Source: Octopus vulgaris
Taxonomy: Eukaryota
DNA length: 64,000 nucleotides
Direction: 5' to 3'
Assembly (NCBI GenBank): GCA_951406725.2
Contig: OX597837.1
Location: 22,568,001-22,632,000 of the forward strand
Shown: one piece after another, positions 1,290-62,820 of the stretch
How positions within the stretch are numbered: position 1 is the first letter of the stretch
How the letters are laid out: each line of letters opens with the position of its first letter
Position numbers and translations under genes: made by a program
Notes under the pieces: generated by a model
Told to the model about the DNA's origin: nothing
What the model saw: the letters and a program-made list of their open reading frames with translations, nothing else
Databases searched by the model: none

Positions 1290-1423
1290 TCACTCCACGG
1301 TTGGTGGAACAGTCAATTCATATTCAATATTTAGGTTAACATCTGTTAAGTTATCTTTCACCATTTTCTCAACTCTTCGACTGAAAAATGGTGTCAAATA
1401 ATGCTTCCAATCTCCGACTTTAC
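1290..1423 (-). CDS. Sulfotransferase exon 6 (terminal)
   Basis: Acceptor tttgcag; GKVGDWKHYLTPFFSRRVEKMVKDNL...TVE then TGA. Confidence 0.93.
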
Positions 1424-5369: not shown

Positions 5370-5553
5370 CTTGCCGAAGAAATTCTGTCTGGGTTTGATC
5401 CCGGATCCCATAGCCGTCCCACCACGAGTAGTTGACACTTTTATTCTGGCGCATATTCTTAAACAGACATCGATGGCAAATAGTCAACAGTTGTTCCGGT
5501 GTTAACTCCTTACCAAGAAATTTGGCAATACGCTGCACATTTCCAGCAAGGTC
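5370..5553 (-). CDS. Sulfotransferase exon 5
   Basis: Acceptor ggcag; DLAGNVQRIAKFLGKELT...TEFLRQ-G; donor GTGAGT. Confidence 0.95.
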
Positions 5554-7155: not shown

Positions 7156-7253
7156 CTTATGTAAATCTTCATACTGAACAATGAGGATGTTATGATGTTG
7201 TTGGTTCAAATCCACAGCAGTTCTCACATGTTTACCCCATGGGGAATAATACA
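7156..7253 (-). CDS. Sulfotransferase exon 4 (absent from the ORF track)
   Basis: Acceptor ttgcag; VYYSPWGKHVRTAVDLNQQHHNILIVQYEDLHK; donor GTAAGT; phases match both neighbours. Confidence 0.93.
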
Positions 7254-9630: not shown

Positions 9631-9757
9631 CTTTATCTTTGGTAAACCTATCGCAGAATTCTTCAAATGTTCCAACAAATTTCAAAGGTGTCAACATTTT
9701 TAGGAAGTTGTAGTATGAAATTAGTATATCCTTTGGATTTCTAACAACATAAATTAT
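9631..9757 (-). CDS. Sulfotransferase exon 3
   Basis: Acceptor cttcag; IIYVVRNPKDILISYYNF...DK; donor GTGAGT; 127 nt. Confidence 0.95.
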
Positions 9758-14464: not shown

Positions 14465-15756
14465 TCAAGTCGACTTCGGCAGAGTTTGAACTCAGAACAT
14501 AGAGATAGACAAAATGCTGCTTAGCATTTTGCCTGGCGTGCTAACAATTCCTATTTCTTTATTGGCCACAAGGGGCTAAACATTGAGGGGACAAACAAGG
14601 ACAGACAAAAGGATTAAGCTGATTACATCGACCCCAGTGCGTAACTGGTACTTAATTTATCGACTCCGAGAGGATGAAAGGCAAAGTCGACCTCGGCGGA
14701 ATTTGAACTCAGAACGTAACAGCAGACAAAATGCCGCTAAGCATTTCGCCCGGCGTGCTAACGTTTCTGCCAGCTCGCCGCCTTAGATATATTAATAACA
14801 AAACAGAAAAAGAACATTTACTTTTGGTTTGACTGTTGAAAGCTGTTCTGGAAGGAGTTGAAAGGGCAAATGGCTTTTGATCAGTCGAGGTGATTCCTTA
14901 GCAGCTATAGCAGGTAGTCCAGGATAAATATTTTCAAGAAAATGGAATCGTTGTTCAATGTTTTTCTCTTCTTCTTGTGAAATGTCAAGATCTGAATGGA
15001 TGAGGTAGACAATTTCTTGAACCCATGTAGTTCCTGGAAAAGACAAACCATTACACACATATATTTTAATAATAATAATAATAATAATAATGGTTTCAAA
15101 TTTTAGCACAAGGCCAGTAAGTTAGTGGGAGGGCATAAGTTGATAACATCAACCCCAGTGCTCAATATCTTGTTGATCCTGAAAGGAAGTAAGGCAAAAA
15201 TGACCTTGGCAGAATTCGAACTCAGAACGTAAAGACACATATTGTCACTAAGTATTTTAACCAGCATACTAATGATACTGCCAGCTCGCAGCCTTAATAA
15301 TAATAATAATTATAATCCTTCTTACTATAGGCACAAGGCCTGAAATTTGTGGGAGGGGCTAGTCAATTACCTCAACCCCAGTACTTGACTGGTGCTTATT
15401 TTATCAACCCTGAAAGGATTAAAGGCAAAGTCAACCTCAGTGGAATTTGAACTCACAACATAGCGACAGATGAAATGCCACTAAGCACTTCCCCTGATGT
15501 GTTAATGATTCTGCCAGCTTGTTGCCTTATATAATAATAATAATTCTTTCTACTATAGGTACAAGGCCTGAAATTTGTGGGAAGGGTGTAAGTTGATTAT
15601 GCCAACCCCAGTGCTCAACTGGTGCCTATTTCATTGATCCTGAAAGGATGAAAAGCAAAGCCAACCTTGGCGGAATTTGAACTCAGAATGTAGAGATGGA
15701 TGAAATGCTGCTAAGCATTTTGCCCAGCGTGCTAATAATTCTGCCAGCTTGCTGCC

Positions 15757-18214: not shown

Positions 18215-19277
18215 TATCACTTTAATGATTCTGCTAGCTCACTATTTACATACAAGGCCTGCAATCAGTATTTAATTGGTATTTTATTTTAATGAGAATA
18301 TTAGATAGTACCATCACGTCTGGCATGGGTTGGATGGTTTGACTGAGGACTGGCAAGCCAGAAGGCTGCACCAGGCTCCAATCTGATTTGGCAAGGTTTC
18401 TACAGCTGGATGTCTTTTCTAATGCAAACTACTCCGGGAGTGTAGTGGGTGCTTTTTACGTGCCACTGGTACCAGGTCCCAGTTGTTTGTTTTGGCATGG
18501 TTTCAACAGTTAGATGCTCTTCTTAACACCAACCACTTTACAGAGTAGACTGCTTACCTTCATGCGGTGCCGACACAGATGCTTTACATGTGAAGCCAAC
18601 ATTGTAGTTCTTTTACATGGTGCTGATACAGGCATTTTTTTTGCATGGCATCAATGGATTTAATTCTGCTTGAAGTGTTCTGTGGATATCAACTCCAGAA
18701 AAAAAATCCTCTCTATTACACTTCAGGTAATCTATTGTTATTTCCACTACAGCTTTAACAAACTGAATTCATACTATTTCACGAGTAAATAGTTCTTATT
18801 AGCGAGCTGTTAAAAAAAAAGAGGCGATGCTTCGGTATAGGTACACACGTGACTTTGTTTACATTTCTGAAGATTACAGAAACCCTTTCTCCCACCCCTA
18901 ACCCCAACTCCCCCATATATATAAAAAAACACTTTCTTGAAGATGTATCCGGTACTTACACAGGTACATATACCGAAGGTTCGCCAAAAAAGATTATATA
19001 GATATCTGATGAGAGGTACTGAACAATATATAGTGTATCAGCGTGTATGTGTGTGCGCAACCACAATGTTTAACCACTGGGGTCGATATAATCGACTTAC
19101 CCCTCCCCCAAAATTTGAAACTGATATTTCTGAAGGCGTTTTTTTTTCCAACTTTCTTATCCACCATTCTATGTGCATAATACGGAAGATTGCCGAAGTC
19201 ATCTTTCTAGAAATCGAAAGTGTGGGCAAACTACACCACGAAAACTTACGTTAATTACCTGACTGGAACCGACTTAC

Positions 19278-19806
19278 CTGACCGTGGCCAAGACACTACC
19301 CACACATCGTCTGGTCTAACGTCAAAGTCTCGAATCTTAGGTAAATCGTTTTCTAACATTGCGGGTAGGACAACCCCTTTGTATTGTATCAGTTTCTGTC
19401 GTCGACCGAAAGGTGCATCGTAATAAGTGTGAATATCATGAACATATTTTTTGTAAATAAGTTTCAGACGAGAAAACAAAATAGTGCCGAGGAGTAAAGC
19501 ACCAATGGTTATGGAAGCGTAAACCATGTAAATGATCCTTGGATCCATCTTTTCCTGAGAACTCTTTCTTCTGTAAGGTGGTGCCGGTTTCCACCTTGTC
19601 TGTTGGTGTCCCCGGGAAAACAAACCTTGTTGAGATGACGAACGTTTTGGCGTCAAACACGAAAGGGGTTGCACGAAAACACATGCATGAGGGCGTAAAG
19701 ATTGTGTTAAAACAGGGCGAAGTGAGACGGTGGGATTAAAACGAATCAAAGTGCCGAGTTGCCGGCTTAATAGTCGAGGAAGAAAGAAGGAGTTCATTAT
19801 TGACAT
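19278..19806 (-). CDS. Sulfotransferase exon 1 (N-terminal extension, hydrophobic helix, start of catalytic domain)
   Basis: ATG in AAACA-ATG context; encodes ...FDVRPDDVWVVSWPRS-G; donor G|GTAAGT, phase 1. An alternative start Met87 (ATG 19548-19546) is possible. Confidence 0.88.
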
Positions 19807-19945
19807 TGTTTTTGACTTTCACATGTGGGAAATTTTAGTTTTACCGCCGGAAGTTGAATAGATTCAAGGGAAATCACTCTGAACAAACTATCAAGAAATC
19901 ACCCTGAATAAACCACCCCAAGAAATAAAATTCCGGCAGAACTGA
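19807..19945 (-). promoter_or_regulatory. Putative proximal promoter/5' UTR of the sulfotransferase gene with an ETS-type site
   Basis: CCGGAAGT at 19847-19854, about 40 nt upstream of the ATG; exon 1 is visibly CpG-richer than the rest of the window. Confidence 0.4.
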
Positions 19946-20058
19946 GTTTTAACAGTTTAAAACATCTTTACGAACTCGATAAAAGTACCTAGTCCATTCT
20001 ATCATATACTTACTATAATTAATTACAAAAACAGTCTGTAACGAAAAGATAACTAATT

Positions 20059-20978
20059 TGGCATAACTACAGATGTGTACCCCATCCCTCATTTGTTGCC
20101 TCACAACTTCCTCTCTCTCTCTATTCGCTCAGCCGAAGTCGACTTTCGGTTACTTGATGGATCAGTGTCTTCCAGTCAGTTCTATCCTGGGCCGCTTCTT
20201 TCAGACTGGCTATGTCCATTCCGGTATCACTCTTGATGGTGGCAAGCCAGTGGGTTCTTGGTCGGCCTCTTCCTCTCTTGCCACTGACCATTCCGAGCAT
20301 GATGTCCTTCTCCAGGGATTCTCTCCACATAATATGACCGAAATATGCCAATCTACGCTTGGTGATCCCAGCTTCTAGCGACATTTTCGGCCTTATCTGC
20401 TTAAGTACTTCTCCATTGGTGAGCCTTGCTGTCCATGGAATCCGCAAAAGTCTTCTCCAACACCAAAGCTCGAATGCATTGATTCTCTTCATAACTTCCA
20501 GAAAATGGATATTTTTTAATGAAATTTTCAAATGCCGCTTAGATGCTGTAAATTCAGAGTATATAGGGATTCGTTGCAGAGAATTTTTACCGAGGGCTTT
20601 CGAAAAATTTTTTTTACCTTCATAGCTTTCAGGAAAATGGGTATTTTTAATGAAAGTTGATGCAGATACCTTTTAAACGGCATAGCTTACGGTTATAAAT
20701 TCCAACTTATGTGGTCTTCTTGATCCGAAACTTCTCCCCCTCATCCCGTCGGAAAAACATTTTTCCTACAAATTTCTTTATAATCGTAATCTATGCCGTT
20801 TGAAAGGTATTTGCATAAACTTTCATAAAAAGATACCCATTTTCCTGAAAGTTATGAGGGAAAAAAGTCGGGTTGTGTGAATTTTCCGAAACTCCTCCCC
20901 ACACCCCTTTGGAAAAATTTGTCTGGAAGTTATGAGGCAACAAAATCGGGAGTGGGGTACCCATCTGTAGTTATGCCA
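20059..20978. mobile_element. Foldback-like element with ~55-bp terminal inverted repeats and internal sub-repeats
   Basis: TGGCATAACTACAGATG...AACTTCC versus GGAAGTTATGAGG...CATCTGTAGTTATGCCA; a related partial copy lies at ~21031-21277. Confidence 0.7.
20110..20487 (-). mobile_element. RTE (BovB-like) LINE 3' fragment
   Basis: INAFELWCWRRLLRIPWTAR...YFGHIM...LEKDIMLG...RGRPR; (GA)n tail; nested in the foldback element. Confidence 0.85.
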
Positions 20979-49776: not shown

Positions 49777-50399
49777 CTTAAAAAAAAAGAAAAAAGTGGT
49801 AACGATGAGTGGAGCAAGAACATAAACCAACAAACATTTAATTTTGTTTAACACTTTAGCATTCAGATTACTCTGGCAAATATAATGCTTATTTATTAAC
49901 ACACACGATGCCGGTGGCACACAAAAAGCACCATCCGATCGTGGTCGTTGTCAGCCTCGTCTGGCACCTGTGCCGGTGGCACGTAAAAAGCACCCACTAC
50001 ACTCATGGAGCGGTTGACGTTAGGAAGGGCATCCAGCTTTAGAAACACTGTCAGATCAGACTGGAGCCTGGTGCAGCCTTCTGGCTTCCCAGACCCCAGT
50101 TGAACCAGCCAACCCATGCCAGCATGGAAAGCAGACGCTAAACGATGATGATGATGATGGGCTTTCAGTTTATATACACAAAGATTTGGTTGACCCGAGT
50201 CTATAGTAGAAGACTCCAACCCAAGGTGCCAACGCAGTGGGACTGAACCAAGAACCATGTGGTTGGGAAGCAAGCTTCTTACCACACAGCCACACCTGCA
50301 CCTTGTTAATCTGTTAAAAATAGTTCTGTTAAAGATTTTAGAAGTAATACAGTCCCAAACGATAATTGGAAGTGAGAAAGAAAATGATTTCTTACTTAC

Positions 50400-50489
50400 A
50401 ATGTAGTCTTTTCTTCCCTGATGTGACTCAACATGTCTCTTCAGTTTGTATGCTGTAGTGAAAGCCCAGTCACAGCCAGGCTGGTTACA
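50400..50489 (-). CDS. ZXDC: ZXD-like exon, finger 2
   Basis: CNQPGCDWAFTTAYKLKRHVESHQGRKDYI; acceptor ttaag, donor GTAAGT. Confidence 0.92.
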
Positions 50490-50593
50490 CTTAAATAGAA
50501 AGACATATACACACATATAAGAATATATGTTAGCGACAGAGGCAGTTTTAAAGACAGCTAGGACTATATATTCTACTTGTATATATGAAGGTA

Positions 50594-61394: not shown

Positions 61395-61399
61395 ATGTT

Positions 61400-62820
61400 A
61401 TCAGAACTAGTGTGGAAACAAGGATTAGAATCGAAGGGCCTTAGAGTCAACCTAGCTAAAACCAAAGTCCTAATAAGTAGGAAGGCAGGCAAACCACAAA
61501 TCCCTTCAGGTAGATGGCCCTGCTCGATCTGTAGTAGAGGCGTAGATAGAAACTCTATAAGATGTACCCAGTGTAAGCTATGGACACATAAGAGGTGCAG
61601 TAATATCAAAGGAAGGCTAACCGGGAAGATAGTTTTTGTATGTGGCAGATGCTCGGGAGCAATAAACACTGAAAATGCGCAGAGACCAGCTTCCGCCTCA
61701 TTCCAGGGAGAAAAACTAGAAGTAGTTGATAGCTTCCATTACCTAGGTGACCAAGTCAGTAGTAGGGGAGGGTGCGCTGAAAGTGTAGCTGCTAGAATAA
61801 GAATAGCCTGGGCAAAGTACAGAGAGCTCTTACTCTGCTGGTGACAAAGTGCCTCACGCTCAGAGTAAAAGGTAGACAGTATGATGCATGTGTACGAACA
61901 GCCATGCTACATGGCAGTGAAACATGGGCTGTGACTGCTGAGGACATGCATAAGCTTGCAAGGAATGAAGCCAGTATGATCCGACGGATGTGTAATGTCA
62001 GTGTGCATAATTGACAGACTGTAAGTACCTTGAGAGAAAAGTTGAACCTAAGAAGCATCAGATGTGGTGTGCAAGAGAGACGACTGTGCTGGTATGGTCA
62101 TGTGGCGAGAATGGATGAGGATAGCTGTGTGAAAAAGTGCCACAGCCAAGCAGTTGAGGGAACCTGTGAAAGAGATAGACCCAGGAAGACCTGGGATGAA
62201 GTGGTGAAGCACAACCTTTGAACTATAGGCCTCACCAAGGAAATGACCAGTGACCGAGAGACTTTTGGAAATATGCTGTGCTTGAGAAGACCTGGCAAGC
62301 CAAATGAGACCATAACCTCATGGCCTATGCCAACCAGCCCACTTGTACATATCTTTTCCTTCTTTGGACACTAAACTCTGCTTGTGAAGACCTGTTGAGG
62401 CAAGTAAAATCAAAATCGATGACTGGCATCCATGCTAGTGGGGTGCAAAGAGCACCATATGAGTGTGATTGTTGACAGAGCGGCTAGCCGGCTTCCATGC
62501 CAGTGGCACATAAAAGGCACCATTCGAGTGTGATCATTACCAGCGTCGCCTTACTGGCACTTGTGCCCCGTGCTAGTAGGGTGCTAAGAGCACCATCCGA
62601 GCATGATTGTTGCCAGTACCGCCTGACTGGCCACCGTGCTGGTGGCATGAAAAAGCACCCACTACACTCTCAGAGTGGTTGGCATTAGGAAGGGCATCCA
62701 GCTGTAGAAACTCTGCCAGATCAAGATTGGAGCCTGGTGCAGCCATCTGGTTTGCCAGCCCTCAGTCAAATCGTCCAACCCATGCTAGCATGGAAAGCAG
62801 ACGTTAAACGATGCTGATGA
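61400..62820 (+). mobile_element. 5'-truncated RTE-type LINE (RT C-terminal half with PHD-like finger, 3' UTR, GAT tail)
   Basis: WKQGLESKGLRVNLAKTKVL...CSIC...CTQC...H..C...CGRC...VDSFHYLGD...WYGHVARM...RPRKTW; contains frameshifts and stops. Confidence 0.88.

Follow-up and report, generated by a model that had tools for sequence, protein, structure and literature searches.

Animal sulfotransferases are usually divided into soluble cytosolic enzymes that act on small molecules and Golgi membrane enzymes that act on macromolecules, according to passages of PMC9072122. The gene described here raises the question whether a sulfotransferase (SULT) of the cytosolic type could be imported into mitochondria and held there by a membrane helix. 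It lies in a 64,000-nucleotide stretch of Octopus vulgaris DNA (the window, to which all positions refer), and the first-pass annotation, made from the letters of this stretch, had proposed that a mitochondrial presequence and a stop-transfer helix precede a small-molecule SULT domain. If this is true, a SULT for small molecules that brings along its own anchor and mitochondrial import signal, retained from octopus to ticks and lobsters, would represent a third class, and a dedicated sulfation reaction at the mitochondrion would be implied.

Gene structure and transcription of the 5' end

The gene is encoded on the minus strand of the window in six exons, which together specify a protein of 427 aa and are separated exclusively by GT-AG introns. 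The coding part of exon 1 (19278..19806) comprises the leader, the helix, a stalk and the beginning of the SULT domain as far as the PAPS loop; the corresponding open reading frame extends from 19806 to 19255 on the minus strand and begins with MSIMNSFF. The remainder of the PAPS loop and the catalytic His231 are encoded in exon 2 (14822..15033), and Arg253 and Ser261, which bind the 3'-phosphate, in exon 3 (9631..9757), followed by exon 4 (7156..7253), exon 5 (5370..5553) and exon 6 (1290..1423), which ends at the stop codon. A protein of equal length from Octopus bimaculoides (P0001) is identical at 402 of 427 positions. The differences are distributed unevenly, with 13 in the 86 residues of the leader, none in the 29 residues of the helix region and 12 in the remaining 312, and none of the 13 leader substitutions introduces an acid.

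For a transcript check, four of 24 listed sequencing runs were compared over 19150-20110, none of which is on record as RNA. On contigs from three of the four runs (three studies) the sequence leaves exon 1 at 19277 and continues into exon 2, with loose ends matching 15003-15032, and the first ATG is reached. While the runs were only guessed to be RNA, a joint across a 4.2-kb intron identifies these contigs as cDNA, and since they reach the first ATG the leader is part of the mRNA. The longest 5' UTR (19807..19932, minus strand) comes from run X1, whose contig spans 19932-19277 with zero differences; the contig of run X10 extends to 19816 and that of run X2 to 19807, where an adapter-like end follows. 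The contig of run X16 covers 19150-19306 only, which is mostly intron, and the leader region is outside it. Two of the three results that the first-pass annotation had named as refuting its proposal did not occur: contigs reach or pass 19806 instead of starting downstream of it, and related species show an open frame, which in O. bimaculoides and in Argonauta runs from Met1 onwards. Within the contig of run X1 only, an in-frame ATG-TGA start-stop element (19819..19824, minus strand) is found 18 nt 5' of Met1. This element closes the upstream frame at 19824, which leaves Met1 as the first usable start, and it could dampen translation. The octopus gene is an intact, spliced gene for a cytosolic-type sulfotransferase.

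The sulfotransferase domain

A Pfam search with the exon-1 reading frame alone gave no match. When scored on the 94%-identical O. bimaculoides protein, PF00685 (Sulfotransfer_1) is found at E=1e-72 over residues 165-411, and similarity to solved SULTs starts at residue 132-139 approximately. The extension ahead of the domain noted in the first pass is therefore real, with a length of about 135 rather than about 120 residues. The predicted structure of the O. bimaculoides protein has a SULT fold (pTM 0.71), and a Foldseek search with this model returned E values of about 1e-25 and a target-normalised TM of about 0.9 to SULT1 structures. The 48 sequence matches obtained among solved structures all belong to cytosolic or microbial SULTs.

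The signature residues of SULTs could all be located in the octopus protein (PRSGTTW, H231, R253, S261, RQG and Trp180), with two substitutions, an Arg for the PAPS-loop Lys, which is also seen in 16 of the 71 anchored homologs described below, and a Gln in the RKG motif, which is seen in three of them. The equivalents of the residues that we take to be His108, Lys106, Arg130, Ser138 and Trp53 in the standard numbering are retained in 68-71 of the 71. Judged by these residues, the octopus domain is likely to be PAPS-dependent and active. The C-terminal dimerisation motif of SULTs, in the definition that we assume for it, was matched loosely in only two of the 71 family members. Measured against the norm of soluble cytosolic SULTs, the octopus protein is not of the soluble type, as it carries a conserved hydrophobic helix at residues 91-112.

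Leader, helix and the downstream methionine

The leader (residues 1-86; 19549..19806, minus strand) is predicted from its composition to consist of a mitochondrial presequence and a spacer. Its description in the first pass as free of acids and rich in Arg, Ser and Leu over the first 84 residues was confirmed by counting (0 D/E, 10 R, 12 S and 11 L), the first acid being E85. The hydrophobic segment had been read correctly as well: the best 19-residue hydropathy window begins at residue 91 (KD 2.0), and the predicted transmembrane helix (residues 91-112; 19471..19536, minus strand), which contains no proline, is directly followed by the basic flank RLKLIYKK (residues 113-120; 19447..19470, minus strand). 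The charges flanking the helix in octopus, +2 and +3, are near balance. The leader is identical to that of O. bimaculoides at 73 of 86 positions and alignable with that of Argonauta from Met1, and the helix region (residues 87-115) is identical at 29/29 positions in the two octopus species. The predicted structure of the O. bimaculoides protein is disordered over residues 1-81 (pLDDT <50) and contains a helix at residues 89-123 (pLDDT about 87-93) that continues into the stalk.

An acid-free run of at least 84 codons is present in eight of 93 such stop-free stretches in the window, the octopus leader being one of these eight, and the run by itself was therefore dropped as proof of a presequence. 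It is the occurrence of the leader on spliced contigs, together with its conservation in homologs, that sets it apart from chance. The motif R-x-[FYL]-[SA] occurs in the octopus leader at Arg11 only, distant from the helix, and the amphipathic moment of 0.55 (residues 10-27) does not stand out from shuffled sequences (P=0.12). A query of a language-model atlas with residues 1-125 returned zero usable matches.

Initiation at Met87 (19546..19548, minus strand) had been put forward as a possible source of a differently targeted isoform. Its context is AAG-ATG-G, as originally read, and the isoform itself is poorly supported: five AUGs lie 5' of Met87 on the longest contig, and the residue is an octopod feature, retained only in Octopus and Argonauta and replaced by Val in two other cephalopod-like proteins. 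A Met near the helix is found in 15 of 56 leader-bearing proteins of the full homolog set, against 7.6 expected, and after lineage thinning in 6 of 31 against 4.5, i.e., without enrichment. With this excess gone and several Met residues at the helix edge, we rejected the idea that the Met87 isoform is conserved. By analogy with helix-first paralogs elsewhere, a form of the Met87 type is possible.

An anchored family across protostomes

Three homolog searches and one profile search yielded 327 proteins including cluster members; 20 near-copies, isoforms and fragments were left out, as were proteins longer than 530 aa and those in which no PAPS loop could be recognised. As anchored we counted proteins in which a hydrophobic helix precedes the PAPS loop by 72-95 residues. 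There are 71 homologs of this kind, from molluscs, annelids, chelicerates, crustaceans and further protostomes, and 176 without a helix, and a small number whose helix lies at a different distance were assigned to neither group. Molluscan carriers include, besides Octopus and Argonauta, the snails Elysia, Bradybaena, Babylonia, Biomphalaria, Haliotis and Gigantopelta, the bivalves Ostrea, Mytilus, Dreissena, Mactra and Ylistrum, and a chiton. Among worms the helix is found in Lamellibrachia and Macrostomum, and a rotifer protein also has leader and helix. The arthropod carriers are a horseshoe crab, a scorpion, spiders, ticks, mites, Homarus, Palaemon, Artemia, Caligus and the springtail Orchesella. 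Among the matches listed, no named insect row and no deuterostome row has a helix at this spacing. The recurrence of one layout in these 71 protostome proteins supports the original proposal of a presequence and a stop-transfer helix on a small-molecule SULT, and it points to a likely overlooked subfamily of enzymes, predicted to be anchored in mitochondria, in molluscs, worms, crustaceans, spiders and ticks.

Of the 71 proteins, 56 begin with Met and possess leaders 26-177 residues long; in 13 the helix is preceded by fewer than 25 residues, and two are without a start. Helix-first forms occur in Priapulus and in a nemertean, and members without a long leader include P0086 and P0113 (Priapulus and its sister), P0015, P0078 and P0073. 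Some of the short-leader homologs look like truncated models, while those of Priapulus, P0015 and P0113 look like true helix-first proteins, in which the helix may act as a signal anchor alone.

The presequence character of the leaders was assessed from composition and motif counts, in comparison with shuffled sequences and with helix-less SULTs. The first 30 residues are net positive in all 56 full-leader homologs, compared to 37 of 108 helix-less SULTs, and contain at most one D/E in 44 of 56, compared to 7 of 108. The motif R-x-[FYL]-[SA], which we take to be the cleavage motif of the matrix peptidase, occurs in 26 of 56 leaders against 9.5 in shuffles (16 of 31 against 5.1 after lineage thinning), and in 13 of 56 it is located 12-35 residues before the helix, against 3.9. 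Acids make up 7.6% of the last 22 leader residues and 2.9% of the residues upstream of these, a rise that one would expect where a clipped presequence gives way to the mature N-terminus. Distant leaders align no better than shuffled ones (median score 20 vs. 20 in 465 pairs), which is typical of targeting peptides. None of the leaders contains a strong signal-peptide core (best 11-residue KD <=1.9), and the amphipathic moment of the family is not above that of shuffles (P=0.22). The helix is free of proline in 68 of 71 homologs, its C-flank is net positive in 68 of 71, and the C-flank carries at least as much positive charge as the N-flank in 59 of 71.

Variants of the layout were also observed. 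In Homarus, isoform model X2 (P0090) joins the leader to the domain without helix and stalk, both of which are present in model X1 (P0214). As a gene model, the layout of P0090 would predict a soluble matrix form arising by alternative splicing. Helix-less SULTs were found in sea slug, clam, millipede, centipede and spider (P0272 and P0274, the sea-slug rows, and P0022, P0089, P0111 and P0288), of which P0022, P0089, P0111 and P0288 branch among the anchored proteins in a 46-row mixture tree. The position of such helix-less rows among anchored proteins suggests that duplicates have lost the anchor repeatedly. P0299 from Styela and P0196 have a strongly hydrophobic helix at the extreme N-terminus without any leader and are placed outside the clade A group; they possibly represent a second case, of independent origin, in which a cytosolic-type SULT became anchored in a membrane.

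A literature search, largely confined to listings of open-access papers, returned no account of an anchored or presequence-bearing cytosolic-type SULT, and database gene models already include the leader without comment. We regard the family as a real, conserved variant of a known enzyme family that has apparently gone unremarked, with a mitochondrial location predicted from its sequences.

Phylogenetic position and relation to SULT4A1

Trees were built on the domain only, so that leader and helix did not shape the topology. A 60-row LG+G4 tree separates a 17-row group containing SULT1-like rows from SULT4A1, insect SULTs and anchored proteins with support of 99/99. Members of SULT1 and SULT2 (SULT1C2, SULT1A1) have the fold and the active-site residues in common with the octopus protein, but they are soluble and have no leader, and SULT1-like rows make up this separate branch. 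SULT1C2 is reported in part of PMC11411706 to sulfate cholesterol of the mitochondrial membrane, which is a precedent for sulfation at mitochondria. In the 46-row mixture tree all 22 anchored rows are contained, together with SULT4A1 and the insect type, in a 34-row group (81/96), while the branches of SULT4A1, Priapulus, the insect group and the anchored group meet in an open fork. Constraining SULT4A1 to the SULT1 group was rejected (p-AU 0.0038, for rows picked after seeing the trees), and an anchored clade excluding SULT4A1 was not (p-AU 0.149); SULT4A1 is represented in the trees by one row, a truncated sheep variant of 222 columns. Strict monophyly of the anchored family is not claimed, as the 53-row anchored clade of a FastTree analysis (95) was not recovered as a starred group in the more careful trees. 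From these trees the anchored family probably sits on the SULT4A1 branch, and its link to SULT4A1 would be co-orthology at best.

Passages of a 2024 review (PMC11275347) describe SULT4A1 as vertebrate-specific, substrate-less, associated with mitochondria and without anchor features, and the words "invertebrate" and "transmembrane" have 0 occurrences in the consulted part of that review. In yeast, SULT4A1 sits on the cytosolic face of the outer membrane (part of PMC8803991). Its solved structure (PDB 1zd1) is the best match for exon 1, with a near-gapless alignment over residues 136-351, and it has in common with the anchored family a spacing of 52 residues between PAPS loop and catalytic His (51 of 69 members), compared to 56 in SULT1. 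A coral SULT and the row sister to it also have a spacing of 51-52 residues, and the 52-residue spacing may be ancestral. In other respects the two differ: SULT4A1 has neither leader nor anchor, is peripheral on the outer membrane and without shown activity, whereas the anchored family has leader and helix; SULT4A1 has a Leu in place of the PAPS-loop Trp and a shortened lid, whereas the Trp is retained in 68 of 71 anchored proteins along with the full RKG region. SULT4A1 is itself very highly conserved, and its identity to the octopus protein or the family is at most about 42%. An identification of the octopus protein as SULT4A1 was rejected on account of Trp180, the full lid and the RQG region, and the database name is a best-hit label.

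Our trees agree with a tick genome study whose clade A brings human SULT4A1 together with Drosophila St1-4 and just one tick gene, SFT-142 (sections of PMC11752866), which encodes 388 aa in six coding exons (part of the PMC11752866 supplement). Tick-like anchored proteins have 390-400 aa with leader and helix, close to the length given there for SFT-142, and the octopus gene likewise has six exons. The clade section of PMC11752866 makes no mention of leader, helix or targeting for SFT-142, and from its published length, its exon number and its tree position this gene is probably a member of the anchored family. Insect SULTs (Drosophila St1-4, luciferin sulfotransferase-like proteins and Anopheles AGAP001425) belong to the same broad branch and are catalytically complete, but no named insect row among the matches listed has the helix at the spacing of the anchored family, and in two insect rows the loop before the catalytic His is longer (72 and 81 residues). 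A link to luciferin sulfation in the firefly squid was dropped, as "sulfotransferase" has 0 occurrences in PMC7708342.

SULT4A1 is an essential neuronal protein lacking a known substrate and probably lies on the same branch as the anchored family. An intact, mitochondria-directed relative would offer a direct route to a substrate search and to the rescue of SULT4A1 loss; active insect relatives of SULT4A1 already exist. With considerable doubt, one may speculate that the ancestral bilaterian clade A SULT worked as an enzyme in a mitochondrial membrane and carried an import signal of its own, that it was kept by most protostomes (in single copy in ticks) and freed to the cytosol in insects, and that vertebrate SULT4A1 is its de-anchored descendant, still clinging to mitochondria. 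The enzyme of octopus, snail or tick would then reveal both a mitochondrial sulfation reaction and a substrate of SULT4A1 that has been lost or has stayed hidden.

Predicted membrane topology and alternative locations

The sequence features of leader and helix make mitochondrial targeting of some kind very probable. The reading that we favour, in which the inner membrane holds the anchor and the active site faces the intermembrane space, is given a probability of roughly 0.55. A proline-free helix with a basic C-flank is the pattern for stop-transfer into the inner membrane. The basic leader would carry the protein through TOM/TIM23 and would be clipped by the matrix peptidase, and the helix would stop the transfer and exit sideways, leaving the N-terminus in the matrix and the C-terminus outside. 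PAPS and PAP pass through the outer-membrane porin; PAPS made outside mitochondria would thus enter by this route and PAP would exit the same way, no carrier being needed. At the membrane the enzyme would sulfate a lipophilic hydroxyl compound of the sterol, phenol or catechol type, most likely inactivating or mobilising it, and the nature of this substrate is a tentative guess that could easily be wrong.

The evidence for a presequence would serve equally well for a protein in another mitochondrial compartment, either a soluble enzyme of the intermembrane space from which the helix is cut off, as with bipartite presequences, or one with its domain in the matrix. Arthropod helices are indeed weakly hydrophobic (Hessa sums of 4.9 in lobster and 5.4 in tick, compared to -0.1 in octopus), and the lobster isoform model P0090 joins the leader directly to the domain. 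We consider such locations unlikely, given a helix region that is invariant in the two octopus species (29/29), unbroken into the stalk and Pro-free in 68/71, and given that a sulfotransferase in the matrix requires a PAPS carrier. Outer-membrane signal anchors, too, combine a helix of moderate hydrophobicity with a basic C-flank, so that TOM arrest or a helix-first form beginning at Met87 could leave the domain facing the cytosol. This arrangement would agree with the 13 of 71 homologs that are helix-first and would place the domain on the side that SULT4A1 occupies in yeast (part of PMC8803991). It appears somewhat less probable still, as 56 of 71 homologs retain a long leader in which the cleavage motif is enriched, and as translation would have to begin after five AUGs at a Met that is unconserved.

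Golgi sulfotransferases, a different sequence family acting on glycans and proteins, have a single helix near the N-terminus, then a stalk and then a domain of SULT fold that depends on PAPS, and the octopus protein follows the same plan. Together with the nearly balanced flank charges in octopus (+2 and +3), this layout would suit a secretory type II or III membrane protein of ER or Golgi with the leader as its cytosolic tail. The Golgi enzymes, however, have no presequence-like leader and are absent from the 48 solved-structure matches, all 48 of which are cytosolic or microbial; the leaders of 26-177 residues are unalignable, acid-depleted and equipped with a peptidase motif; and the positive charge of the C-flank, which equals or exceeds that of the N-flank in 59 of 71 proteins, disfavours a lumenal domain. 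A secretory location is thus rather improbable, and membership of the octopus domain in the glycan/protein sulfotransferase family was rejected because all sequence matches and the listed fold matches are cytosolic-type or microbial. Finally, the leader might be an untranslated or neutral extension of an ordinary soluble SULT that starts further downstream, which would agree with the similar acid-free runs in seven other stop-free stretches of the window and with several database homolog models that begin after the helix. Its presence on spliced contigs with an in-frame stop upstream, the open and acid-poor leaders of 56 homologs across phyla and the fixed spacing of the helix largely refute this explanation, and we give it very little credence.

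Genomic surroundings

On the same strand, a neighbouring upstream gene contributes an exon with a C2H2 zinc finger (49896-50516, minus strand; E=1.6e-4, below the Pfam cut-off). Two further reading frames resemble, by eye, remnants of LINE retroelements. One of them (20121-20492, minus strand), for which Pfam gave no match, lies upstream of the sulfotransferase transcript, about 200 nt from its longest 5' end, and the other (61395-61844, plus strand) has a PHD-like Pfam match.
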